Shown: piece by piece, positions 4,818-50,908 of the stretch
Numbering within the stretch: the first letter of the stretch is position 1
How the letters are laid out: each line of letters starts with the position of its first letter
Origin: Candidatus Heimdallarchaeota archaeon
Lineage (GTDB): Archaea; Asgardarchaeota; Heimdallarchaeia; Heimdallarchaeales; Heimdallarchaeaceae
Reading direction: 5' to 3'
Length of the DNA: 64,000 bases
NCBI GenBank assembly: GCA_021399345.1
Contig: JAAFKI010000045.1
Location: 32,001 to 96,000 of the forward strand
Translations under genes and position numbers: made by a program
Notes under the pieces: model-generated
Databases searched by the model: none
Seen by the model: only the letters and a program-made list of their open reading frames with translations
Told to the model about the DNA's origin: nothing

Positions 4818-5648
4818 CTATAATTTCAGTGAGATTGCTCTAACTATAATGCTTAACAGATAATTAGCTCCAATCAATACAACAGCTAAAATTACCAGTT
4901 TTACTGCTGTTAGATTTCTTTTGGCATGTTTGTTTGCAGCTGTCATCTCTTTTCCCCAGAAGGTTTCATCTTCTCTCTTGAATTCCCAATAATCAAGATA
5001 ATCCTCTCTATCTGATTCAGGATCACAAATCACTCGGATTTTGTCTTTAATTTCTTTTCCTTTTGCATCATGAGTTATAGCACTGATAAATAAAGATACA
5101 GCTTTTTTTGGAGGAGTTTTGAAGACTTTGGGAATATAGATTATTTTTTTTTCTTTGTTAATTTTACTTGGAATAGCTTTATCATTGACATATACAGAAA
5201 TGGTTTCAGGATCTATTCTGATCTCATCATATCTAATTCTGATTTGAAACTCAGATGGCGTAACTGCCTGATCATCTGGTTCAATAATTCTCATTTTTGG
5301 AGGCACATTATATCTACTCAAACCCCCCATACACCCTCCAAGTATCAGAGATGCAGCAGGGAGATAAAGAAGGGTTGTTTCGAAGATTGCTCCACCATTA
5401 AATGCAATAAGTTCACCTGAATAGAAGTATCCTCCCATAACTACGAAAACAGAGGTTTCGAAAAAGAAACCACCAACAGTTACTTCTAGAAGTACCCAGA
5501 CAAGGATTTCTATTACAATAACTATGCCACCCCATTTCAAACAAAAAAGAGCTATTAGTTTTATTTTTTCTTTCAGAGTAAGACTCAAGAAATCTATTTC
5601 TACCTTTTCTGTTTTATCTTTTCTAAATGGAAACCGCATTTCAATCAC
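4818..5648 (-). CDS. Hypothetical membrane protein with a central beta-rich (Ig-like) soluble domain
   Basis: Several hydrophobic segments; overlaps the upstream gene. Confidence 0.7.
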   Translation of the reverse strand: MIEMRFPFRKDKTEKVEIDFLSLTLKEKIKLIALFCLKWGGIVIVIEILVWVLLEVTVGGFFFETSVFVVMGGYFYSGELIAFNGGAIFETTLLYLPAASLILGGCMGGLSRYNVPPKMRIIEPDDQAVTPSEFQIRIRYDEIRIDPETISVYVNDKAIPSKINKEKKIIYIPKVFKTPPKKAVSLFISAITHDAKGKEIKDKIRVICDPESDREDYLDYWEFKREDETFWGKEMTAANKHAKRNLTAVKLVILAVVLIGANYLLSIIVRAISLKL

Positions 5649-6035: not shown

Positions 6036-6911
6036 TTATTTCTTTGCTTTTTTCACATCATTAGAATTGTTTTGATGTAAAACGACTTTACCATCTTCTT
6101 CATCAATAAAAATCTCTTGTTGAACTTTTAATTTATCAATTACATGTCTTGGTAGCTGAATCCCGCCATAACGGTCAAGATACACATGATGCATATCACG
6201 GATTGTTTTTAGTTTTTCAGTAGGTGAATAACCAGAGATTCTACCATCTACAATTTGAATCAATCTATCTGTTGATTTAGCAACATCGAAATCATGAGTA
6301 ACCATAATCGCGGTAATTCCATGGGTTTCATTTAGGTGTTTAAAGTATTTTAAAAGCTCTCCTGCAGTTTTAGAATCAAGTTCTCCAGTTGGTTCATCTG
6401 CAAGCAAAAGTATTGGATTATGGGCGAGAGCACAAGCCAAACCTGCTCTTTGTACTTCTCCACCAGATAACTGGCTAGGTTTATGTTTTAGCCTTTTCGC
6501 TAAACCAACTTCACCTAGTAGTTCTTTTGCATCTTTTATTCGCTGTTCTCGCGGAATACCAAGTAATCGCATAGGAATTTCCACGTTTTCTAGGATATTG
6601 ATCTCCCAAATTAAGTTTCTATTAGGAATTTGCCACAAAGTTCCTACTTTAAATCGTCTATAAAGGCTTCTTGAATCCTCAGTTAGTTGGTCCAAACGAA
6701 CACCCCCCACACTAATTTGACCAGCAGAAGGATCAGTCATCCCTGCTAGAACAAGCAGAAGAGTGGTTTTTCCGCTTCCTGAAGGACCAATGATTGAAAT
6801 GAATTCTCCTTGATTAATTTCAAGTTCTATCCCTCTTAAAGCAGGAACTCTTACATTGAATTCTTTAGTGTAGTAGATTTTTATCAAGTCTCGTACTTCT
6901 ATAAATGCCAT
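6036..6911 (-). CDS. ABC transporter ATP-binding protein (LolD/MacB type) with a C-terminal AbrB-like domain
   Basis: GPSGSGKTT, LSGGE, LLADEPTG, MVTHD; C-terminal LDRYGGIQLP. Confidence 0.95.
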   Translation of the reverse strand: MAFIEVRDLIKIYYTKEFNVRVPALRGIELEINQGEFISIIGPSGSGKTTLLLVLAGMTDPSAGQISVGGVRLDQLTEDSRSLYRRFKVGTLWQIPNRNLIWEINILENVEIPMRLLGIPREQRIKDAKELLGEVGLAKRLKHKPSQLSGGEVQRAGLACALAHNPILLLADEPTGELDSKTAGELLKYFKHLNETHGITAIMVTHDFDVAKSTDRLIQIVDGRISGYSPTEKLKTIRDMHHVYLDRYGGIQLPRHVIDKLKVQQEIFIDEEDGKVVLHQNNSNDVKKAKK

Positions 6912-6919
6912 TTTATCAC

Positions 6920-9900
6920 CTAAGCAGATTGTCTTAATTCAGTTCCAATTTCTTGTTTTGAAGAACTTATAGTGGGTATTGCTGCTCCAACCAAAGCAGT
7001 TACAAACAGGATTGATAATACTAATGCTATTTGCCCAACTGGAAATGCCATTGAATACGGTGGAATTGTTCTATTAATTGCTAATACTGCCATAAGCATT
7101 GTTGAAGAAATATACCCAACAATTAGACCTATAATTGTTGTGAAAGCGAGTAAGGAGACATACACTGAGATATAATACTTCATCAGTTGTCTGGAAGAAA
7201 TACCTATGGCTTTCATTGTAGCTATTTCTTTTGATTTATCGATTAATTGAATGGAAGCGAACAATGCTAGAATTATTGCATTAATAGTGAAAGACATTAG
7301 GAGTGTTGAGTTAATAGCTGAGTAAAGAATTGATGATCTGGGGCTATCGGGGCTCACGAATACTTCGCCTTCAACATCAAATATGAAACCAGTACTAAAG
7401 GAGGCGATCTCAACAGCAACATCAGATATAATTGCTCCATCAGCGACTTTAACAAGAAGATAACTTATCACATCGAAAGGAGCTACTTGAATGTAGTTCA
7501 AGAAATTGATTGGTGCTACAAAGTGAAAAACCTGTGATCGGACATTAGTAGTTAATATGTCATTAACAAGAATTGGCCAGTACTTGAAAGTATCCATGAT
7601 TCTAAGAGTTATATTCTCATCCCAATAAGGAGTACCGAGTATAGGACGCATGCTTTCATTATAAGCTCTATATGTTATTGGTTTATCTTCCCATTGTTCG
7701 ATATTGTAAGCAGCTATTTCGTCCTCTTGAGCAAGTACAGATTTTGGTTCTAGATCATTAGAAGTACTAAGCTCATTCATAAGTTCAGTAAACTCAAATT
7801 TACTAAAATCATCTCTAAAATATGCCGTTTTATTATAACTAATTGGATCAACAATTAAGACCGAATATGTTAAGGCAAGATCGCCTTGAACATTATCTAA
7901 GTTAATCAAACGAACAATTGAAGTAGATTCAACAGAAGTAAGATTATCTATTGTTGCTTTTAGCGTGTGATCATCTATAGGAAAATCTCGTATCATTATA
8001 TCTGACCCAACATCATAATAAGCACTATTCAGGTTGTAATTTTGATAAGTGAAAGGAACAACAATTGATGCAACAACGAGAGAAAATGATAAACTGAGAA
8101 TTATTGAAGACCTAGCAAAACTTTTCTGATATCTACTTATCTCTCTTACACTGAGAGAAGAAATGTCCATTTTCAATTTAGTAGTTAATTTAATCAATAA
8201 GCGAGAAAATAATGGTAAAAATCTTTGGAATAAGAGTATTAAACCAAATATCATTAAAATTGTTGCAGGAATGCCTATATATCGTGCAGTAGATTCCTTA
8301 TGGGATGTTAATATTGGTAATTGATAAACTATCCATACTGTACCTGCTAAGAGTAATAGAACAATATCTACAAAGTACTTATAGAAGCGAGGTAGTGACT
8401 TCTCTACTTTACCATAATCATCAATATTCCTCTTTCTCAGTAGCGTCATCGTATTGAAAAGTTGAATAAACAATATTGCTCCAATACTGCCTAAGACGGC
8501 TACGAATACCGAAGAGAGCTCTATTTTCAAAGGAGAAGAAGTGTTTGAAAATTTCAAGAAACCTGAGCTTCTAGTTAATAAGGATGCAATAGGCGTTCCT
8601 AGAAAAATACCCACAAACAAAGAAACTCCTCCTACAATTAGCGATTCTAAGGCCAAATAAGAACCGATTTCTCCTCTATTACTTCCTCTTTCAGTTAAGA
8701 TTGTTAATTGTCTATCTCTTTTCTTTCTTACCAGATTGGCAGCATACACTGTCAGTATAATAGTTAAAGCCATAATGGGAGCAAGAAAAGCAAACATGAA
8801 AGTTTGATATAATCCATATTCATCTTTGAAACTTTCCATTAAATCGACGAGATAAGAATTAATCCGAGCATTATTAATTCCACTTAAAGTTTGATACCAT
8901 TCTTTTAGTTGGATTCCTATTGTTTTGAGAATAGTTATTTCTGTATCAATTTGAAAAGCATCAATTAAGGATACATCATAAAATAAATTTTCATAAACAG
9001 TTCCTTGACTATATGTTAGTGCAATATCATTGTTGATATTTGCAGCTGGTATCCATCGGGTAAACAAAGCTAAATTATCTTCTAATTCCAGCACATATTC
9101 AATTGGGATACCAATTGAAGATTCAATCACATTATACACAGGAAGATCGTCCAAAAAGACAATACCTGTAATATTGACAGTTGTTTGAGCTGAAGGAACT
9201 GTAAGAGAAGCACTTTTGTCTAAAGCAACAGGGATAAAGAGTGGAATTATAGAACCATTTCTAAAAGTTGTATGGTTATAAAAATCTCTAGTCATTAGAG
9301 CCAAAGCCTCATTATCACTCTCAGGTGCATGACCGTATGCAATATTACTCTCAATGAAATACCTCAATTTGAGATCGGATCCATACAATTGCATATTCGG
9401 TAAACTCGTGATATTAGTTGTAGGGTCAGTTGATTGCGTGAACGATGCTAATTTAAAAAACAAATCTCTTTGTGGAACCCGGTGAGTCATATCAATGAAT
9501 TCCATAGCATATTTAGCAACATTATCAATACTGTTGTATTGATGATATGATGCTTCAATTGGTATACCTGCTATTTCAACTTGGATGAATCTTCGAGGTT
9601 CATCAGCCAAATAAAGATCAAAAGCTTGGAATTGATAAGAATAAATAAAGAAAACATATTGTGTTATCACAGATACTGCAAGAGTTACACCTATTGCCGA
9701 AATAAGTGCATATTTCCACCCAGCTTTAAAGAGTGGTTTGAAGAGATGAAGACCAGGAGAGAACAGGAGAAGAAAAACATCTACTATAAGGAGAACTATG
9801 ACTAAAACGGGTAATAGAAGCCATAAAATAACATCCATGACAATCTGAAAATCAGGTTTTCCACTTAATTTTGCCTCGGATAAGTTTCGAAAATAAGTCT

Positions 9901-10131: not shown

Positions 10132-10150
10132 GTTGTCTAGATAATATTTT

Positions 10151-11383
10151 GTGATCATCATGGATAAATTTGAGAAGCTGGCTTTGGAGGCAATAGAAGA
10201 GAGTAAAAGCAGTTCTTATACTCCTCAAGACCCTTTTGTCTCTTTTGGCTTTGATGCCAACCCGTTTCTTGAAACATCTATAGAAGATCTGCAGAATGAA
10301 GAATGTATTGAATCTCGTTTTAGAATGGTCATTAAATACATCAACAAGGTTCACAATAGCTTTCTTGAAAATCATAATAAAAAGAAAAAAGATTCTGATA
10401 CCGTGATAATGGATGGTGTTTTGTATGGCTCAAGTCAGTCAGGTGTTAGTACATTAATTTCCTTAGTTCATCAATACTTGATAAAAGTTCACAAAGAATT
10501 AGCGAACACTGTTTTCTCAGATGCTAAAGAATTAGTTGAATTTGAAGACAACCAATATTCTATCGCAAAAACAATCCAGAATTTTAGAAATTTCATAGGA
10601 AGTCAGAATACAGGAGGAGATACTATTTCACTACTCATCATAGATCATGCTGATTTCTTAATTGATTTCTTTGAAGACTTCAGATACGCACTAGATAGAG
10701 ATTTTCAGAATACACCCATAGTATTTATTTTCTCTCAAGGTGGTTGGACCCGATTAAAGAATCAGCTTGCGTTTTCTGATTATGATTTAATCAATAGTAT
10801 GGTACCAAGTCAACAAATTAATTCCCTAAATAAAGACGAGATATTCGAGATATTAAGTTTAAAATTAAGCAAGAATAAGCAAATTCAAAATCCTTTCACT
10901 AAAGAAATACTTCAAACAATTTCAAAGAAAGCTAGTGGAAGTCTGTTAAATGCCATAAAAATTTGCACTAAAGTTTGTGAAGAATGTTTCTACAATGGTC
11001 TGGATATCTCTTCTTTGTCCCTAATTAATGACGTCACATCATTTCTAGCCATTGACGTGAACAAGGAGTTCTTTGATCTTGTGACACTTAATGATAATAC
11101 TCAAACATTTATTCTTGCTCTAATTACGATGAAGTCTACAGCTTATGATTTTGGTGTAACGTATGATGACATTGTTAATAATTTAGGGATACAAAAAACT
11201 TCAGCAGCCCACCATTTAAAGCAACTTCAAGAAAGACGGTATGTCATAAAAAGGACAGTGAACAGAAAAGCTTTCTACAGATTGAGAGAGGAACTTAAAA
11301 CCATATCTGATACATACTTAATGAAAAGTTTCGAACAGAAAGAAACTCATGTAAGGCTCGAAAGTATTTCTAATTTGGTTTAA
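10151..11383 (+). CDS. Degenerate AAA+ ATPase-fold protein with C-terminal winged helix (Cdc6/Orc- or ExeA-like architecture)
   Basis: FGFDANPF, Walker A-like GSSQSGVST, Walker B-like LLIIDHAD, lid ASGSL, HTH region VTYDDIVNNLGIQKTSAAHHLKQL. Confidence 0.75.
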   Translation: MIIMDKFEKLALEAIEESKSSSYTPQDPFVSFGFDANPFLETSIEDLQNEECIESRFRMVIKYINKVHNSFLENHNKKKKDSDTVIMDGVLYGSSQSGVSTLISLVHQYLIKVHKELANTVFSDAKELVEFEDNQYSIAKTIQNFRNFIGSQNTGGDTISLLIIDHADFLIDFFEDFRYALDRDFQNTPIVFIFSQGGWTRLKNQLAFSDYDLINSMVPSQQINSLNKDEIFEILSLKLSKNKQIQNPFTKEILQTISKKASGSLLNAIKICTKVCEECFYNGLDISSLSLINDVTSFLAIDVNKEFFDLVTLNDNTQTFILALITMKSTAYDFGVTYDDIVNNLGIQKTSAAHHLKQLQERRYVIKRTVNRKAFYRLREELKTISDTYLMKSFEQKETHVRLESISNLV

Positions 11384-18685: not shown

Positions 18686-20288
18686 CAAATTGGTATCAGT
18701 TTTCTTTGTATTCATACTACTTAGTCTTTCTGTCTCAAGAATAGAAGCTGAACATTCTGAAAATTTTCGAGAAATTAGTTTTGAAGATAAGGGATATCTT
18801 ATTAGTTATAGGATTGCTCAAGGTGAAAATCTAGATAACATGTTTGAAGAATTAGGATTTGATTTACATGGATCATTCTCTAATGGAGTAATGAATGTTT
18901 TACTAAGGGAAAGGTACACAGAATTTAGAGACATATATTATATTGAATCTGATAAATTCATACTAACTCAGGAAACAGTATATTCAATCGAAAGTTACTT
19001 AGTTCTAGAAGAACCTTTAACTGCTGAAATTAACACAGGAAGTGACTTTATAGCAGAGTTCATTGGTTTTAATTTTGAACCAGTAGAATCAGAGATTATA
19101 CATGCTGAACTACCCAAAGAAACAGCTATAATTATACCAAAAATCTTCACTAACATAACTAGACCAAATTTTGGAGCAATGATTAAAGATGCTAATTATT
19201 TTGATTTCTTACCTCTAATTATTGGGGAAGATTTTGATAGATATGAAGCTGAATTTACATCTTTGCTTCTAGATGAATCTTTTTCAGTCAATATTTACAA
19301 TAGAGGAGATGAAGAATTTACAATTTCATTAGATATTAAACTAGAAACTTCCATATCGATGCGTGCAACTTGGAATAAGTATAGTGGTCTGTTAACTGCT
19401 CTCTCTGTTCATCTCATATATGGTGACAAGAGTAGCGTTCTGGTCATCTCACTAGAAAGTTATGAAGAGATTCTCTCCCCATTAGATTCACATTTTATGC
19501 AATTCTTTATTACGAATAGTTCTTCTAGACATGAAATCTACCAACTAAGGAATTCTACTAAAGAACAACTAGAGCTGTGGGATCATTGGATTAACCAATT
19601 GAATCAAACATATGGTCTAAGATATTTATTTTCCAAATCTGGCCTAAATTTCCAAAAAACACTTTATGTATATGACAAACTTCTCGATTCTTATTTCTCA
19701 TCAACGCCAGTTCACGGATCATGGATTGCACAAATCCCTCCTGTCCTCATACCAACATGGGATAAATATTCAGGAATGGCAATACTGGCAGAAAAATTAT
19801 GGGAACAACTACATCAAGTGTTTCACGGGTTTCAATTTACACTTACAGGCGTTACAAGCTCTTTATTTACCATTAGAGAAATAGATTTTCACATTGAGTA
19901 TCAAAAAAGGGATAATCTTCACCACATCCTGTGGGAATTTTCATTTGATTACCAATCAAATAATACCCAAACTGTTGTTCCAAGATTATTTATTCAAGAT
20001 ACAGAAGTCTACATGAATGGATGGTTGGCATATACCGAAGGTGGTCAACTTCAATCATTTTCTCTTGAGTTTCAAGAATTATATCACTCATATTACGACC
20101 CACCTGAATTAGATTTTGGGAATAATTACTACTTTGAATACTATATTGAATCCGTATCAGAAAATATTACTAAACCTGAGTTTGTGAGTATAACTGAAAC
20201 ACCTCACCCATTCCATTTTGAGCAGATAATTTTTTATTGTATTCTTGCTTATTCAATTATTAAGAAAAAACGCAGAAGAAGGAATTGA
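18675..20288 (+). CDS. Secreted surface protein with C-terminal TM anchor
   Basis: Signal peptide; C-terminal hydrophobic stretch plus KKKRRRR. Confidence 0.75.
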   Translation: MKNNKLVSVFFVFILLSLSVSRIEAEHSENFREISFEDKGYLISYRIAQGENLDNMFEELGFDLHGSFSNGVMNVLLRERYTEFRDIYYIESDKFILTQETVYSIESYLVLEEPLTAEINTGSDFIAEFIGFNFEPVESEIIHAELPKETAIIIPKIFTNITRPNFGAMIKDANYFDFLPLIIGEDFDRYEAEFTSLLLDESFSVNIYNRGDEEFTISLDIKLETSISMRATWNKYSGLLTALSVHLIYGDKSSVLVISLESYEEILSPLDSHFMQFFITNSSSRHEIYQLRNSTKEQLELWDHWINQLNQTYGLRYLFSKSGLNFQKTLYVYDKLLDSYFSSTPVHGSWIAQIPPVLIPTWDKYSGMAILAEKLWEQLHQVFHGFQFTLTGVTSSLFTIREIDFHIEYQKRDNLHHILWEFSFDYQSNNTQTVVPRLFIQDTEVYMNGWLAYTEGGQLQSFSLEFQELYHSYYDPPELDFGNNYYFEYYIESVSENITKPEFVSITETPHPFHFEQIIFYCILAYSIIKKKRRRRN

Positions 20289-44644: not shown

Positions 44645-46234
44645 TTACAATTTTTTTGACATATAAGGACCGTCCTTTGTATATCCTCGTTTTTGATAAT
44701 ATTCTCTTACTCCAACACCAGAAATTACTGAAATCTTAGAATAATCTTTTTCTTTCCCAATTTCTTCTGCTCTTGAAAGTAACTCTTTTCCATACCCTCT
44801 ATGTTGCCATTGAAGGGCCCCACTCTTCGAAGCCTGCAAACCTCGAAGTTCTCCATATATATGTAGTTCTCTTACAATAATCGTAGATTTGTCAAACTCT
44901 GGACGAATAATGTTATCACTTAGCTCTCTTAATCTTAAAAATCCGATAAGGGCATCGTTTTCTGTTTCTTCAAAGGATAGAAAATGTTCGATTCCTTCGC
45001 TGGCTTCATATGATCGCTCAATTAAATCAATCTTTGACTGATTTATTTTTATGCCTTTTTTATAAATGATATGGCCTACTTCTCTGCAGCGAATACACTG
45101 GCATTTCTTTCCTTGTTTTTCGAGAAGAGCTTGAACATCTAATCTCAAATCACTCTTATTTGGACCTGCAGCTATTTGATGTGCAGGTATGTCCCTAAGC
45201 ACTCTCTTGATTCGTACATATGGAGGAATTAGTTCTTTTATTTTAGCAATTAAGTTTGTAGTAGATTCATTAGTTAAGGGTTCATATTCTCCATTTTGAA
45301 AATCTTGGAAAAGTTGAGTTCCAGGAATAACCATAGTTGGATAGATTTTAAGCTCATCAGGTCGGAATCTAGAATCATTAAACAGAATTTCAAAAGATTC
45401 AATATCTCTCTCAAATGTTGAACCTGGGAGGCCAGGCATCATATGTGCAGTAATTTTAAGTCCAGTATCCTTGATGAATTGAAAAGCTGCAACTGTTTCT
45501 TTAACTCCGTGACCTCTTTGCATTTTTTCTAGAATATCATCAAACACAGACTGAACTCCAACTTCTAATCTTGTAACGCCGTATTCTATAAGATGATTAA
45601 TTTTCTCGTGATTTATCTGATCAGGTCTTGTTTCAGCTGTTAAACCTATACATCGATGAACAGCTGTTTCGTTGATTTTATGTGCTTCTTGAATGTCCTT
45701 GGAATCATTTTCATTAAAAGCATCAAACATTCGTTGAATAAACCATAATTGATATTCAACAGGTTGGTTGGTAAAGGTTCCTCCCATGATGATAGCGTCT
45801 ATTTTCTCAGTTGAGTGACCTATAGATTCAAGTTGTTTAATTCGTTCAGTTACTTGAAGATAAGGGTCGAAATTGTTACGAATCCCCCTCATAGCTGTAG
45901 GTTCATATCCAGTATAACTTTGAGGTTTATCAATTTCTGGACCTCCAGGGCACATAATACATTTTCCATGAGGACACTCCCATGGGCGCGTCATTGCAGC
46001 TACAATTGCGACTCCCGATAAAGTTCGGACAATACGTTTTATAAGAATAGGAAGTAGTAACTCTCTTTCTTCAGTATCACAAATTGCTAAAATTTCACTG
46101 TTCTTTGGAAAATCTTTCAGTTTATATTTTTTAGCAATATCACGTTTGACTTGACCTAGAATTTTTCTATTAGGCTCTTCTAAAATTAATAGCCTTTCTT
46201 TAATTTCGACTAGAGCTTTATCTCGATCATTCAT
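44645..46234 (-). CDS. elp3: Elp3 tRNA U34 acetyltransferase (radical SAM plus GNAT)
   Basis: CPHGKCIMCPGG, QSYTGYEP, ETRPD, RCREVG, VRELHIYG, QHRGYG; start moved to ATG 46234 to avoid overlap with rps30e. Confidence 0.96.
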   Translation of the reverse strand: MNDRDKALVEIKERLLILEEPNRKILGQVKRDIAKKYKLKDFPKNSEILAICDTEERELLLPILIKRIVRTLSGVAIVAAMTRPWECPHGKCIMCPGGPEIDKPQSYTGYEPTAMRGIRNNFDPYLQVTERIKQLESIGHSTEKIDAIIMGGTFTNQPVEYQLWFIQRMFDAFNENDSKDIQEAHKINETAVHRCIGLTAETRPDQINHEKINHLIEYGVTRLEVGVQSVFDDILEKMQRGHGVKETVAAFQFIKDTGLKITAHMMPGLPGSTFERDIESFEILFNDSRFRPDELKIYPTMVIPGTQLFQDFQNGEYEPLTNESTTNLIAKIKELIPPYVRIKRVLRDIPAHQIAAGPNKSDLRLDVQALLEKQGKKCQCIRCREVGHIIYKKGIKINQSKIDLIERSYEASEGIEHFLSFEETENDALIGFLRLRELSDNIIRPEFDKSTIIVRELHIYGELRGLQASKSGALQWQHRGYGKELLSRAEEIGKEKDYSKISVISGVGVREYYQKRGYTKDGPYMSKKL

Positions 46235-46265
46235 TTGAAAACAGTTTTTCAATAAATAGAAGATA

Positions 46266-46448
46266 TTATCTGGAACGACGTTTAGCTCCCATGCTTTGAG
46301 CTTGACCAGCGTAACGACCAAGAATAACACGTTTAACATATTTGTTTCTTAGACCCCTTCGGGGAATAGGACTGTGTCTTTCTTTTCCTTCAACTTTGGG
46401 AGTTTGCTTTCTAACTTTTCCTGCTTTTTGGAGCGATCCGTGACCCAT
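46266..46448 (-). CDS. rps30e: 30S ribosomal protein S30e
   Basis: HGSLQKAGKVRKQTPKV. Confidence 0.96.
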   Translation of the reverse strand: MGHGSLQKAGKVRKQTPKVEGKERHSPIPRRGLRNKYVKRVILGRYAGQAQSMGAKRRSR

Positions 46449-46632
46449 TTAAACACCTTTTTTGTCTACTTTAGTGGTCGAAGGTACGTTTAAAAACTTA
46501 TAGTTTTTGGTTCAGAAGAAAACTCTACAATAGGAGATTCAGTATAGATTCATATTTAAGCACGAGAAAGTAATTCATCGGTTTATATACCAAATGTAGT
46601 ATTAGTAGTTGAAAACAACTAAGGTGTAAAAC

Positions 46633-46950
46633 TTGACATGGAAAATGGTATTCAAAATCTACGCTGAAGAAAAGGAGAAAAAACTGGAATTAACCAGATT
46701 TAAACTGAGCAACATAACCAATGTTAAAGAATTTCTGAAAAACTTCTTTGAAGATCAAAGAGAGTGGTTAAGAGAGCAAAGCAACCTAGGGAAAGGTTTA
46801 GGTTATGAAATTGTTCTTGTTGATGATAATGGACAAGATTTACCAATGAAAAACCTGTATGAAATTCTGTATACACGAGAGGATCTTGTCTCATTTTTTA
46901 GTATGACTACTGATACAATAGGTGAACTACTAGCTGAAGGGATAACTTAG
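46633..46950 (+). CDS. Hypothetical protein
   Basis: 105-aa ORF with an upstream TATA box (TTTATATA ~46582). Confidence 0.65.
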   Translation: MTWKMVFKIYAEEKEKKLELTRFKLSNITNVKEFLKNFFEDQREWLREQSNLGKGLGYEIVLVDDNGQDLPMKNLYEILYTREDLVSFFSMTTDTIGELLAEGIT

Positions 46951-47050
46951 AGGAATCATCTATGATTTATTTTGAAACTTGTGTAAAAAATAATAAAACA
47001 ATTAAAAAAGGAATAGGAAGTAAGACTTCCACATATAAATTTCCTTAATC

Positions 47051-47944
47051 TTATTTCTTTGTGGAAAAATATTTTTCCTCAATTTCATCAGTATTTATTT
47101 CATTTAATTTGCAATATCTTTCAGTTAATATAGGTTCATGATTGCCTACCACAAGTGCTCCTCCAAAGTAAATCTTACCGAAGTATATGGGATTTATGAG
47201 TATTTTTTCAATCTCATCGGTGCTAAGTTTGGTAGCTCCAGAAATCTCTTCTACGCTCTTACTTTGTTTGTAAAACCAAGCTAACACGATTTTAACTTTC
47301 ATTGCTTCATCTTCTTTGATAACCAGTTTGTCTTTCAGTAATTGATACCCAAATGGTATCAAATCACCATCAACATCTTTCAAAATAATCTGAATATTAC
47401 CACCTGATTTCTTGATTTCCTCTGGAATCCCTTCTGGCACAGGTTCAGATTTATATTCTGGTTCAGAAACAATTTGTTCTTCCTCAACTTCATCTTCATC
47501 TTCTTCGACAACATCTTCTACGACATCTTCAAGAACTTCTTCTGCAACTTCTTCATCCATTTCTTCAAGAATTTCTTCAACTACATCCTCAACAGCTTCT
47601 TCGATAACTTCTTCAGTTGCTTCTTCCTCGATCTCTTCTATTTCTTCTTCGTCTTCTGCAACTTCTTTAAGTTCCTCTACAAGCTCTTCTATTTCTTCTT
47701 CAGGTTGTTCTCCGAGTTCTTCTTCTACTTCATCAATAAGCTCTTCAAGCTCTTCCTTGACATCTTCACTGAACTCTTCTACTTTCTCCTCAAGCTCTTC
47801 TTCGAGTTCTTCTTTTTCTTCTTCGCTGAACTCTTCTACTTCCTCCTCAAGCTCTTCTTCAAGTTCTTCCTTTACTTCTTCACTAAGCTCCTCTTCAGCT
47901 TCTTCTGATAGCTCATCATTAAATTCTTCTTCCATCATAAACAC
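47051..47944 (-). CDS. Glu-rich disordered protein with a C-terminal serine-recombinase DNA-binding (Recombinase) domain
   Basis: PFGY...EDEA...S...I......IL.NPIYFG....GNHEPIL. Confidence 0.75.
   Translation of the reverse strand: MFMMEEEFNDELSEEAEEELSEEVKEELEEELEEEVEEFSEEEKEELEEELEEKVEEFSEDVKEELEELIDEVEEELGEQPEEEIEELVEELKEVAEDEEEIEEIEEEATEEVIEEAVEDVVEEILEEMDEEVAEEVLEDVVEDVVEEDEDEVEEEQIVSEPEYKSEPVPEGIPEEIKKSGGNIQIILKDVDGDLIPFGYQLLKDKLVIKEDEAMKVKIVLAWFYKQSKSVEEISGATKLSTDEIEKILINPIYFGKIYFGGALVVGNHEPILTERYCKLNEINTDEIEEKYFSTKK
47720..47887 (-). repeat. About three 57-bp (19-aa) coding tandem repeats
   Basis: LSEEVKEELEEELEEEVEE / FSEEEKEELEEELEEKVEE / FSEDVKEELEELIDEVEE. Confidence 0.8.
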
Positions 47945-48125
47945 TCCTTAAACATAAACGACTAGTTTTAACTATAAATATTTATATAAAAGGGCCATAA
48001 ACCTAATTTCTTCTAACAAGAATAATATTTTCTAGATTTTGGTGTTTTTTCAGAGAACTATGGAACAGGTAAAATGGGGCTTTACACTAATTTTAAATAT
48101 TTTTGAGTTTTAGTACATTTTACAA

Positions 48126-48866
48126 ATGGAAGAAGCTATACTTAGTAAAACAAAGAGATTTTTTAGAAAAAATGATTTAATGTTTCGTATTGTTATACTA
48201 TTATTCCTAGCAACAGGTACTGTCTATGCTTTTATATTTGGAAATACTTTGCTCCAAATTTTTACTACATTATCTGTAGGAGTTATGGTTTCTTCGTTTC
48301 TATCTAATTATATATTTAATTTTTTTTATGGAGAAGGATACAAACTAACTCATGTAATAAATGAGGTTCTATATCTATTACTAGGAATCCCAATAATGTT
48401 GATTGCTGCAGGCTATATCCCTCTTAGCATCTATATGCTCTTTTTTGCTCCTGACAATAATGATTGGTTATTACCTCTTCTAATTGTAATTATGATTTCT
48501 ATGCAAATTGCTTCGTTTGCTTATATATTTAAAAAGAGAAGTAAGGATAATGAAAGGACTATTTTCCAATTCATAAGATATCTATTTGATTTCAAAGCTA
48601 GAGCAGAAGAACAGAAAAAACATAGAGAACAAACAGAAAAAATTGATAGTTTCTATGATGGGATGAGCAAAGTTAAGGAAAAAGTTGATACAAAGATGGA
48701 AGAAAGTGTTGTGCATTATGAGGAGTATGATTGGAAAAAAAGAAAAGAGATAAAAACTCAAAAGAGAACTGAGCTAATTTGTTGGAATTGTAAAACAACT
48801 TACAAAGCAGAAACAAGAATGTGCAAAAACTGCAATGTACCTCTGAAAGAAGACAGAGAAAAGTAA
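48126..48866 (+). CDS. Four-TM membrane protein with C-terminal zinc ribbon
   Basis: Hydrophobic helices; CWNC...CKNC. Confidence 0.75.
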   Translation: MEEAILSKTKRFFRKNDLMFRIVILLFLATGTVYAFIFGNTLLQIFTTLSVGVMVSSFLSNYIFNFFYGEGYKLTHVINEVLYLLLGIPIMLIAAGYIPLSIYMLFFAPDNNDWLLPLLIVIMISMQIASFAYIFKKRSKDNERTIFQFIRYLFDFKARAEEQKKHREQTEKIDSFYDGMSKVKEKVDTKMEESVVHYEEYDWKKRKEIKTQKRTELICWNCKTTYKAETRMCKNCNVPLKEDREK

Positions 48867-48927
48867 TAAAAATGAACAAAAGAAAAGTTAAACCCAGGAT
48901 TTTCTGATATTTATATTAAATTAGGAG

Positions 48928-49692
48928 TTATTTCTGCTTGAAATCTTCTTTTGTAAGAGTTCTACTTATTTTTTTCTGATAGTTCTTACCAAGTTGATCA
49001 AAACCTTCATAGAATTCATCAATCTCCTTGCTAGCTTCTGAGTATTGTTCTTTTCTGATTCTTCTACCTTCTCTATCAAAAAATCGTTTGAAAAATTGTC
49101 TGATTGTTAAGCTTTCACTTTTCAAGTATCTTAGAAAAATACTAAGTACATAAGAAATTGGAAAAACAATCAAGGCTGTGATAAAAGCATATTGAAGCCA
49201 TTCACTAGTTCGCTCGTTTATGAATAATGCTAGGAGGATAGGTAAATATGTCAATCCAAAGACTCCTACGATAAGTCCAATTATGTAAAAGAATTCTGTG
49301 AAGATCATATTGAGACTATATTTGTCACCAGAGAGGTATTTGAGCAAAAAACCTGCAATTAAAGTTGAACAGAGTACATATAATAAACCAAAAGTTATCA
49401 GATAGACAAAACCATTTGAGGGATATGCTCTTGCTGCATAAATATAGAAAACTGAGAAGATAACTACAGCAGACAGTATTTGGATTAATGGCTTATACTT
49501 GTGAAATTTGTATGGTTTCCTTAAATGTTCCTTACTTACACTAACTTTAGCTTCAGTATCAAGCAAGTGATCTGTAGGAGAAGGAAAGAGTTTCTTATGT
49601 TTCTGTGTTAATCTTTTATGGTGATCATCCTTGTCCCGTTTCCTATGTACCATACTAGTTGGAGAAGTAAGAAAACCTATAAATCTTTTCAC
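48928..49692 (-). CDS. Four-TM membrane protein, paralog of 48126..48866
   Basis: Shared Y.L.....E..Y and T..QF....FD...R...ID.FY.G motifs. Confidence 0.75.
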   Translation of the reverse strand: MKRFIGFLTSPTSMVHRKRDKDDHHKRLTQKHKKLFPSPTDHLLDTEAKVSVSKEHLRKPYKFHKYKPLIQILSAVVIFSVFYIYAARAYPSNGFVYLITFGLLYVLCSTLIAGFLLKYLSGDKYSLNMIFTEFFYIIGLIVGVFGLTYLPILLALFINERTSEWLQYAFITALIVFPISYVLSIFLRYLKSESLTIRQFFKRFFDREGRRIRKEQYSEASKEIDEFYEGFDQLGKNYQKKISRTLTKEDFKQK

Positions 49693-49740
49693 AAAAAAAT
49701 CTAAGGAATTTATATGGAGTTAAAAGAAAGGTTAAACCCT

Positions 49741-50010
49741 AAAGGGTTTTCTGCCTGAACAGGAAGGGTATTCTAACTCGATGCTTCGGGGTTGCGGTTG
49801 AGGGGGGTTCTGGCAGACAGAAGATGTCTGGTCCTTTTCTTTCAGACAAGATAATTGTCTGTTTCCAGACCGAAGTCTGGTTCTGGGGGATTTCAGGCTT
49901 AGGAGGTCTTAACTAAGCCCAAATGGGGGTTCAAACCATCTAAAAAAGGGGTTCAACCTTGTCCCTGAGCATCGGATATCTCTTCCTGTTCAGTTTGCAG
50001 TCCCTTTTTT
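49741..50010. ncRNA. Candidate large structured non-coding RNA (~270 nt), family unknown
   Basis: Long closing stem (CTGAACAGGAAG/CTTCCTGTTCAG, CGATGCT/AGCATCG) enclosing at least 6 hairpins; GC-rich; TATA-like boxes and T-runs on both sides. Confidence 0.7.
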
Positions 50011-50188
50011 GACCTAACCATTTGGCTCCTAAATAGCCTGCCATTAACCAAATAAAGTTGCCCTTGAACATATTTAAACTTTTTTGTAATCTTTGTTGAG
50101 AGGTTAAAACACGACAAAAAACCTCATTCTTTTCAGATTCAAAGTTTTAGAGAAAAAGCAGCTTAACTCACCTAATGGAAAACTTTAC

Positions 50189-50908
50189 TTAGAGGTGACT
50201 TTCTCTAGTTTTGTCCATTGCTTCATCTCTTAAGAATCTTGTGCTTTCTTCTATCCTGGTTCTGATGATATTTGAAACATTTTCAAATTCTTCTTCATCA
50301 AATTCAAAATCAAATATTTTAGCTAGATTTTGAACCAGTTTTTTTGTTGAATCGTAACTTGCAACACTGGGGTCACATTCAACCAATAGTGCAAAACTCG
50401 AATCAAACTCTTTTGTATTACATAGTTCTAAAGTTTCAACTACTGTCCCGTATACTATTCCTTCTTCTAGAAGTTGTACTCCATTTTCCTCTAGAAATGT
50501 GAGTGTTTCTTGTCTGTTTGCTATTCCATAGCATTCAATTTCTTCAAATTGGTTTTGTAAAACAGGTAATCCCCCCACTGGTACGATGTGCGAAACTCCA
50601 CTTTTAATATAAAAATCAACTAGCATTTCTATGAAATCAGAAACAGTATTGTAAGGAATGTTCACTTCACAAGACATTAAAGCTATTTTGTCATTTTGGA
50701 ATATCCTTATTGGTTGTTCTATCAATCCTCCTTTGATTATTGCTACAGGTGGTAGCTCATCTGCATGAACTACTGCTACTTGCTCCATTTTCAATGCTTT
50801 CACTAGAAATGTAGAGAGTATTGTTCCAATTGCACCACTACCACTAAATGATTGTATCAAAGGTTTTCCTTTGAGATCCAAATTATTTATTCCATTTATT
50901 CTGTTCAC
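50189..50908 (-). CDS. PAC2-family proteasome assembly chaperone
   Basis: SFSGSGAIG, LPPVAII..G....PIRIF, PVGG. Confidence 0.85.
   Translation of the reverse strand: MNRINGINNLDLKGKPLIQSFSGSGAIGTILSTFLVKALKMEQVAVVHADELPPVAIIKGGLIEQPIRIFQNDKIALMSCEVNIPYNTVSDFIEMLVDFYIKSGVSHIVPVGGLPVLQNQFEEIECYGIANRQETLTFLEENGVQLLEEGIVYGTVVETLELCNTKEFDSSFALLVECDPSVASYDSTKKLVQNLAKIFDFEFDEEEFENVSNIIRTRIEESTRFLRDEAMDKTRESHL

Follow-up and report, generated by a model that had tools for sequence, protein, structure and literature searches.

The element described here occupies positions 49741-50010 of the window, by which we mean the whole 64,000-nucleotide stretch of DNA that was analysed (C169:32001-96000 of a 3.27-Mb Heimdallarchaeota assembly). 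It is single-copy in its own genome and forms a GC island within an AT-rich genome (GC of 0.48 versus 0.32 in the flanks). A first-pass annotation, made from the letters alone, had described a large structured element with a series of pairings. Inspection of the sequence located all of these, as well as the recurring runs of G followed by TTC:

49742-49747 with 50002-50007, plus-strand letters: pairing AAAGGG/CCCTTT
49751-49754 with 49997-50000, plus-strand letters: pairing CTGC/GCAG
49755-49766 with 49982-49993: perfect 12-bp helix
49779-49785 with 49968-49974, plus-strand letters: pairing CGATGCT/AGCATCG
49814-49830, 49843-49861 and 49865-49880, plus-strand letters: three CAGAC..GTCTG hairpins
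49892-49923, plus-strand letters: hairpin GGCTTAG/CTAAGCC
49923-49939 and 49942-49958, plus-strand letters: two GGTTCAA-type elements

The structure of the element exceeds chance: the MFE z-score was -3.7 for the plus strand and -5.3 for the minus strand, and none of 200 shuffles folded as well. The three CAGAC hairpins are present as described, but their number (one to three) and register differ between species.

The RNA is encoded on the minus strand. The first-pass annotation had left the strand ambiguous; the G.U asymmetry, the promoter, the tetraloops and the T-runs all point to the minus strand. We used a strand-symmetric helix finder, which treats G.U and A.C alike, and counted both kinds of cells in helices P1, P2, and P7. 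Read on the minus strand, these contain 46 G.U cells and no A.C cells, arising from at least nine different substitutions. This helix-specific test replaced an earlier automated test on the intersection of the MFE structures of both strands, which was too strict (7 G.U versus 2 A.C). The UUCG tetraloop found here, and the GAAA tetraloops found in other genera, can be read as such on the minus strand only. In 13 genomes from five genera, the central helix is preceded at a distance of 51-78 nt by an A-rich BRE with TTTAAATA or TTTATATA, and each of the 13 genomes examined for T-runs has them 3-25 nt past the 3' cut. In tRNA introns, the 5' strand of the splicing motif runs from outer helix to 4-bp helix, bulge, and inner helix. 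The bulges of the element follow this order on the minus strand only, and the plus strand has the mirror order. The transcription unit and its terminal stem consist of the following features:

50071-50085, minus strand: promoter, with the TATA box TTTAAATA at 50071-50078 and the purine-rich BRE AAAAAAG at 50079-50085
49995-50049, minus strand: predicted 5' leader ("exon 1"), its start near 50049 inferred from the distance to the TATA box and its end from the ring junction
49749-49994, minus strand: excised circular RNA of 246 nt, seen as a junction in RNA contigs
49720-49736, minus strand: T-rich trailer (UUU, UUU, UUUU on the RNA strand), likely an archaeal terminator
49741-49747, minus strand: 3' strand of the outer helix, ACCCUUU, pairing with AAAGGG(A) at 50001-50007
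49994-49996, minus strand: 5' bulge AAA, with the cut placed after the second A, between 49995 and 49994
49748-49750, minus strand: 3' bulge AAA, with the cut placed after the second A, between 49749 and 49748
49751-49754, minus strand: 3' strand of the central 4-bp helix, GCAG, pairing with CUGC at 49997-50000
49982-49993, minus strand: 5' strand of the inner helix P1, CUGAACAGGAAG, pairing with 49755-49766
49755-49766, minus strand: 3' strand of the inner helix P1, CUUCCUGUUCAG

The 3' part of the leader comprises an outer-helix strand (50001-50010), the CUGC of the central helix (49997-50000), and the first two A's of the bulge; beyond the helix, the leader sequence is not conserved outside the genus.

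The terminal stem, recorded in the first-pass annotation as a long interrupted stem, is indeed paired, but its nature had been missed, as had the circularisation of the RNA. On the minus strand it is a canonical bulge-helix-bulge motif of the hBHBh' type, which reads GGGA-CUGC-AAA-CUGAACAGGAAG on the 5' side and CUUCCUGUUCAG-GCAG-AAA-ACCC on the 3' side. All characters of a splicing-endonuclease substrate are present: two 3-nt bulges 4 bp apart, flanking helices, and the polarity of a pre-tRNA. In each of the 23 tabulated genomes, and in G023 by eye, four paired positions (Watson-Crick or with one G.U) separate the 5' bulge (AAA) from the 3' bulge (AAA, UAA, or AAC). A genome-wide scan for bulge-helix-bulge motifs recovered the locus among about 1100 mostly chance matches; the top match, on C79, was a plain long inverted repeat with no true motif.

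The motif was compared across 24 genomes from five genera. Overall, pairing is kept in 96% of the cells, and both partners change in 14 of the 24 pairs. None of 500 shuffles reached the observed value, and sliding the partner strand by one to three columns left at most three such pairs; the terminal stem thus covaries across the 24 genomes, a check that had been proposed for the element at the outset. The inner helix P1 comprises 12 bp, is invariant within the genus, and has 99% of its cells paired; across genera, six of its ten scored pairs change on both sides (for example, CCAGAUAGGAAG/CUUCCUAUCUGG). The central helix is paired in 100% of cells in the 24 genomes, with the variants CUAC/GUAG, AUGU/GCAU, GUGU/GCAC, and CUGU/GCAG. 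The outer helix is 2-8 bp long and 82.5% paired, with four of five scored pairs changing on both sides. It is spelled with other letters in relatives (UGAA/UUCA, AAAG/CUUU, GCAAGGAA/UUCCUUGC), and in most species a mismatch adjoins the motif. The 3' bulge in relatives is AAA, UAA, AAC, AAU, or UUA.

RNA contigs from four metatranscriptome runs, each from a different study (sediment), cover 49748-49996 only, and none extends into the flanks. In these contigs, 49996 joins back to about 49751, reading CTGCCTGAACAGG..., and CTGTTCAG stands in front of the other end. All four runs show the back-join: X16 and X20 contain the joint itself, and X15 and X19 have loose ends that match it. The junction reads GCAG-AAA-CUG on the RNA strand, which is what is expected from cutting each bulge after the second nucleotide and then ligating the ends of the body. 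Because the contigs are joined exactly at the bulges, the product is a circular RNA of about 246 nt. The position of the cut within the run of A's follows the canonical enzyme rule, as the junction alone cannot resolve it. This evidence consists of assembled contigs rather than raw reads and carries neither strand nor level information; the contigs come from relatives that are 95-99+% identical, not from the strain sequenced here. Predicted ring lengths in relatives range from 213 to 290 nt. In every membership test that was run, the RNA behaved as a member of the class of EndA/RtcB-made circular RNAs, and circularisation is its defining property.

A profile search of the genome returned two tRNA_int_endo (EndA) genes (C182, 99.5 bits; C89, 57.7 bits) and one RtcB gene (C55, 549 bits), and the ring is presumably made by these enzymes. 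The strong BRE/TATA promoter at 50071-50085 would drive a short precursor composed of a leader of about 54 nt, the 246-nt body, and the T-rich trailer. The ends of the body would pair as the bulge-helix-bulge, with the outer helix, CUGC/GCAG, the two AAA bulges on opposite strands, and the 12-bp inner helix. EndA would then cut both bulges, and RtcB would ligate the ends of the body into the ring 49749-49994. With the junction observed, and the enzymes, start site, promoter, and terminator inferred, we consider this biogenesis highly probable.

In blastn searches (E of 1e-5 or better), 22 of the 24 other species of the genus had a significant match. Seventeen of these matches were full length, with about 72-96% identity; the rest were truncated at contig ends or scattered over short contigs. 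In the alignment, invariant blocks are interrupted by hairpins that vary in presence; the compensatory changes in these hairpins are what a structured RNA would be expected to show. RNAalifold applied to the raw MAFFT alignment gave messy structures due to the inserted hairpins, and these were not used. Judged from this alignment, the gene is under strong purifying selection.

The motif pair GACCTCCTAA and CCCCAGAA, separated by 6-20 nt, matched once in each genome throughout the family's five genera and gave no match in 370 other Asgard genomes; the reversed control never matched. The sequence-only model R1, searched against 83 genomes of the class, recovered only the Heimdall family that carries the gene. 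Weak R1 matches in genus g17 were false, as they fall inside an RNA-polymerase-like coding region. A pattern search for P1 across the order, with three mismatches allowed, gave matches in other genera that fall in coding DNA. Scanning metagenomes resulted in 117 matches; of 80 loci fetched, eight were genuine, and all belonged to genus types already known. Viral contigs were scanned for the 3' strand motif in search of an attP site, and the two matches were chance occurrences in unrelated GC-rich contigs. As far as found, the gene appears to be limited to one Heimdall family, although diverged forms may exist elsewhere. Such a narrow distribution speaks against a universal housekeeping role.

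Inside the closing stem, the ring contains the following features:

49968-49974, minus strand: 5' strand of P2, CGAUGCU, pairing with AGCAUCG at 49779-49785
49923-49958, minus strand: two GAACCCC motifs, GGUUGAACCCC(U)6 and the small hairpin AUGG-UUUGAACCC-CCAU
49892-49923, minus strand: hairpin P7, its loop and 3' shoulder carrying the invariant GACCUCCUAA (49899-49908)
49879-49890, minus strand: single-stranded motif UCCCCCAGAACC (core CCCCAGAA), predicted to be mostly unpaired
49865-49880, minus strand: hairpin P8, with a C(UUCG)G tetraloop
49843-49861, minus strand: hairpin P9
49814-49830, minus strand: hairpin P10
49802-49814, minus strand: single-stranded motif GCCAGAACCCCCC (core UCUGYCAGAACC), which takes in the end of P10

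P2 has the compensatory variants CGAAGUU/AACUUCG and CGAUGUU/AACAUCG, with wobble forms on the minus strand only. P9 is missing from most species; in P8 and P10, there are compensatory changes as well as shifts of register. Sequence invariance falls on five C-rich stretches rather than on the hairpin stems: GACCUCCUAA, CCCCAGAAC, YCAGAACCCC, and the two GAACCCC motifs. In circular partition-function folds of 24 rings, their predicted mean unpaired probabilities were 0.51-0.77. The 10-mer GACCUCCUAA is identical in all five genera despite differences in the stem that carries it (predicted unpaired probability 0.77 on average). The core CCCCAGAA is invariant in 12 aligned sequences from five genera (0.64 for the whole motif), and the core of GCCAGAACCCCCC is likewise invariant (0.72). 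Most single-sequence folds predict a long-range pairing between the GGUUG(A) of 49923-49958 and (U)CAACC at 49795-49800.

The RNA is non-coding; there is no endless reading frame on the ring. No Rfam family matched the element when the whole window was searched at gathering scores, there was no rRNA match in the window, and nothing was found within the element at E values up to 10 on both strands. A match to STnc410 at 50083-50226 (E of 0.015; 22.7 bits versus a cut-off of 50) lies outside the element and was taken as chance. The suggestion of the first-pass annotation that this is a novel RNA gene outside the described families is therefore borne out by the lack of an Rfam match, by conservation with covariation, and by the presence of the RNA in metatranscriptome libraries.

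The best explanation overall, to which we assign a probability of roughly 60%, is a stand-alone minus-strand gene whose sole conserved product is a circular non-coding RNA, possibly a decoy or scaffold. The circular RNAs known to be made by the archaeal tRNA-splicing machinery are introns, rRNA intermediates, and one repaired SRP RNA. The mechanism itself is thus known; what is new is a dedicated, promoter-driven gene with a ring of an undescribed family as its only conserved product. A ring with its own promoter and under strong purifying selection, with no tRNA or rRNA context, differs from the known archaeal circular RNAs. Circular RNAs and rings from tRNA introns (tricRNAs) are widespread in eukaryotes, and Heimdallarchaeia are the archaea closest to them. 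The presence of the gene in this group therefore offers a tractable case in which to study the role of a dedicated circular RNA in a prokaryote. It also illustrates that annotation based on homology misses an RNA that metatranscriptomes readily assemble.

The nearest relatives in mechanism are the circles formed from archaeal tRNA introns and the metazoan tricRNAs (PMC6614914). These share with the ring the two 3-nt bulges 4 bp apart, the processing by splicing endonuclease and RtcB (predicted in our case), the stable circular product, and the place of the 5' cut, which corresponds to that of a canonical 37/38 intron. In contrast, the exons here yield no consistent tRNA and are not conserved, and the conserved, promoter-driven "intron" is the product. 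The Thermoproteus SRP RNA, which is circularised and permuted (Plagens et al. 2015, PMC4731332), is likewise neither tRNA nor rRNA, is cleaved at a bulge-helix-bulge and circularised, and belongs to a similar size class. It is a recognisable SRP RNA with a permuted gene, whereas our element matches no family and its genome has a collinear SRP RNA elsewhere. Archaeal circular pre-16S/23S rRNA intermediates and circular 23S rRNA, according to PMC12918454 and to preprints, also have a bulge-helix-bulge in a long terminal processing stem and a circular product, and have been seen in Asgard metatranscriptomes; here, however, there is no rRNA, and the unit is stand-alone and gives a ring of 246 nt.

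As to function, the closing rod of P1 and P2 would hold out the conserved C-rich motifs (GACCUCCUAA, CCCCAGAAC, YCAGAACCCC, and the two GAACCCC), which would bind a sequence-specific RNA-binding protein or a G-rich RNA, such as Shine-Dalgarno leaders. That the ring acts as a stable decoy or scaffold in trans is the most economical reading of this architecture, and we propose it tentatively. The first-pass idea of a sponge or scaffold built of iterated protein-binding hairpins is likewise conjectural: what is conserved is mostly single-stranded and C-rich, and the three CAGAC hairpins on which it laid stress are variable. Known decoy or sponge RNAs include CsrB/RsmZ, the C-rich loops of RNAIII of S. 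aureus, and the mammalian Cdr1as, which is circular. The resemblance (see also PMC13125240) is one of architecture only: several copies of a short conserved motif are held unpaired on a stable structured RNA. Unlike those RNAs, the ring has only four to five motif copies, and no enrichment of targets was found. The GACCUCCUAA motif resembles an anti-Shine-Dalgarno sequence and shares ACCUCCUA with the 3' tail of the 16S rRNA of the genome. GGAGG-type motifs peak at positions -15 to -11 before start codons (162 versus about 13 per bin), so the organism uses Shine-Dalgarno pairing. However, the extended loop complements TTAGGAGGTC were not enriched genome-wide (five found versus 3.5 expected), and neither were the complements of the other conserved motifs. 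The simple base-pairing predictions for the ring failed.

The gene's surroundings bear on the strongest of the competing readings. The order SBP, PAC2, RNA is syntenic, whereas the side facing the 3' end of the RNA varies. In G043, PAC2 and Elp3 are the immediate neighbours of the RNA, and there is no island. In the window, a 3.3-kb block of lineage-specific genes (46449-49692) lies in between, and in G001 the intervening region is about 16 kb. In G001, G013, G004, G006, and G021, about 60 nt from the 3' end of the gene recur as copies that share sharp boundaries. Each copy comprises the 3' strands of P2, the internal loop, P1, the 4-bp helix, the bulge, and the outer helix, together with the T-run. 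In the arrays of G001, G013, and G004, a copy follows the stop of each co-directional cassette gene by 13-31 nt, or overlaps it, and precedes the next cassette gene by 60-140 nt; the cassettes measure 0.6-9 kb. Some copies have mismatches in P1, though P1 is invariant in the gene, which suggests that they are scars of site-specific insertion rather than selected elements. The 3' 60 nt or so of the gene in relatives thus appears to be a site of repeated cassette insertion, a hot spot that merits a study of its own.

Mobile DNA inserts into the 3' ends of tRNA and tmRNA genes, and integrons carry cassette arrays. As in those systems, the arrays contain direct partial copies of the 3' end of an RNA gene with sharp boundaries, each closing one cassette, in one orientation; here, however, the target is the gene of a circular RNA, the cassettes have no integrase, and the repeats are direct copies rather than hairpins of the attC type. 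The locus could accordingly be mainly an insertion platform at the level of DNA, like an integron attI with its promoter. Cassettes would enter the 3' end of a strongly transcribed unit, excision of the ring would do no more than clear the leader in transcripts that read through, and the ring would have little function of its own. The copies beside cassette genes, the variability of the 3' side relative to the syntenic PAC2 side, and the lack of an island in G043 are in line with this. Nevertheless, we consider it unlikely. Motifs inside the gene, distant from the point of insertion, are invariant in five genera; the covariation of the helices is at the RNA level and shows G.U asymmetry; and the 3' cut is followed by T-runs. 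No Phage_integrase was found near the arrays or among the Pfam matches of the cassette proteins, and the acidic protein encoded at 47051-47944 has no recombinase domain (Pfam, E up to 0.01). There is no cassette-flanking copy in this window, and G043, G044, G045, and the genome analysed here have the RNA without repeats. A purely DNA element with ORB-like G-strings, which had been offered as an alternative by the first-pass annotation, does not fit an asymmetry confined to G.U, nor an RNA ring.

Base pairing between the dispersed 3' half-motifs and the lone 5' half might also occur, either in trans or within a read-through transcript, so that splicing endonuclease and ligase would produce larger rings enclosing cassette genes or join the leader to cassette mRNAs. 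We regard this as a long shot; if true, it would mean that the archaea most closely related to eukaryotes have an RNA-level cassette system based on circular mRNAs or trans-splicing.

Somewhat less probable than the insertion platform is a relic of a giant tRNA intron with decayed exons, the ring being a by-product kept because it is stable or selfish. The 5' half CUGCAA/A (the slash marks the cut) resembles the anticodon loop of tRNA-Cys with an intron at the canonical position 37/38, and all genera retain the U at the second position and the A that precedes the cut. Asgard tRNA genes are described as heavily interrupted in a preprint, and aragorn detected only 27 tRNAs in the genome, several of them with introns. 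However, when the spliced exons were searched with aragorn at a relaxed threshold, there was no tRNA in 11 of 13 genomes, and the calls in the other two differ in identity and strand. The would-be anticodon varies by genus (GCA, ACA, GUA); strong purifying selection is seen in the "intron", in contrast to flanks that lack conservation; and a conserved promoter belongs to the gene itself. The RNA could have arisen from a tRNA intron and still have a function today, and the tRNA-Cys-like frame may describe where the gene came from.

A guide RNA, in which the repeated GAACC(CC) pairs with GGUUC in tRNA T-arms or rRNA and directs a modification or processing enzyme, has a marginally poorer standing. 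There are three to four copies of (U/C)(A/U)GAACC in every genus, and UUUGAACCCCC is exactly complementary to the T-arm of tRNA-Thr(CGU). This tRNA is, however, the only one of the 24 detected with a G5 T-stem and the only one for which pairing with GAACCCCC was good. The 246-nt ring sequence contains no UGAUGA, as would mark a C/D box sRNA, and no H/ACA features were found in the RNA; the unenriched motif complements also count against this reading.

The motif could also delimit an intron in the 5' UTR of the downstream gene (48928-49692, minus strand), acting in cis on the mRNA. This co-directional gene starts 55 nt past the 3' cut in the window, and the corresponding distances are 63 nt in G013 and 29 nt in G004. 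We consider this very improbable, since the downstream gene varies by species, T-runs separate it from the RNA, and the RNA contigs stop short of the flanks. The first downstream genes in G001 are on the opposite strand, and in G043 a gap of 410 nt precedes Elp3.

Finally, although a permuted SRP RNA circularised through the same motif is known from Thermoproteus (PMC4731332), a divergent or circularly permuted SRP RNA, or an RNase P RNA, is already largely refuted and has next to no probability, as the element matched neither Archaea_SRP nor RNaseP_arch in the searches on both strands at E values up to 10. The first-pass annotation had raised a divergent SRP RNA and recommended confirming that the SRP and RNase P RNAs exist elsewhere in the genome. 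Both were located: a full-length, collinear SRP RNA at C135:18987-19294 (94 bits, E of 8.5e-22) and the RNase P RNA at C169:209206-209525 (151.8 bits).

In relatives of the window's genome (G000), the 3' end of the RNA gene recurs as arrays of direct copies, each of about 60 nt and all in the same orientation. Each copy closes one small gene cassette of 0.6-9 kb. This layout resembles that of an integron; an integrase was looked for at the three arrays, and none was found. The copies are located as follows:

L040 (locus in relative G001, G001:C1:618001-638000): 5461-5499, 6253-6300, 8582-8629, 9379-9424, 10140-10183, and 18914-18958
L041: 1172-1213, 2221-2259, 4088-4134, and 4943-4966
L042: 2520-2567 and 3061-3118

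In the window, the RNA gene and Elp3 (44645-46339) are separated by a 3.3-kb block (46449-49692), which contains an acidic protein, an orphan gene, and two 4-TM paralogues. Because this block is missing in relative G043, where the RNA is directly followed by Elp3, we conclude that it is an insertion at a hot spot also used by the cassettes of relatives. No flanking repeats were detected at the block in the window. Orthologues of the two 4-TM paralogues, with 42% and 59% identity, are present in the G001 island adjoining the RNA gene, which also encodes five paralogous NosD/beta-helix proteins of about 510-545 aa:

48126-48866 of the window, plus strand, 4-TM paralogue
48928-49692 of the window, minus strand, 4-TM paralogue
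L040 7061-7840 and 7842-8591, orthologues of the 4-TM pair
L040 2929-4530 and 11137-17532, the five NosD/beta-helix paralogues

The 4-TM genes are convergent in the window, whereas their G001 orthologues share a strand and are arranged in tandem; the pair was therefore rearranged between species.

The 5' leader of the RNA gene contains a small hairpin, GGCU-AUUUAGG-AGCC (window 50019-50037), whose sequence is kept in part within the genus (G000, G001, and G006 clades).

A whole-genome aragorn search of G000 returned only 27 tRNAs, and several amino acids, Cys, Asp, Phe, Ile, Trp, and Tyr among them, were without one. Introns were predicted in six of the 27; that of a tRNA-Ser call measures 431 nt. 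The low count and the introns fit the heavily interrupted tRNA genes reported for Asgard archaea. G000 also encodes two separate splicing-endonuclease homologues, whose open frames span 188 and 190 aa and which may form a heteromeric, broad-specificity enzyme:

G000:C182:19132-19362, homologue 1
G000:C89:2636-2896, homologue 2

The SRP RNA of G000 (C135:18987-19294) scores 94 bits, slightly below the Rfam gathering cut-off of 96.5, and would therefore be overlooked by standard annotation.

Across the G000 genome, 1688 long reading frames were aligned on their first ATG, and GGAGG/GAGGT/AGGAG motifs are enriched about 12-fold at -15..-11 before it. We conclude that this Heimdall archaeon employs Shine-Dalgarno pairing in a sizeable gene set.

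On a 2-kb contig of G000 (C79; L269), a near-perfect inverted repeat of about 40 bp encloses about 300 bp, with its arms at about 130-172 and 468-510. It has no Rfam match, and its arms may be the termini of a small element that is mobile or invertible.
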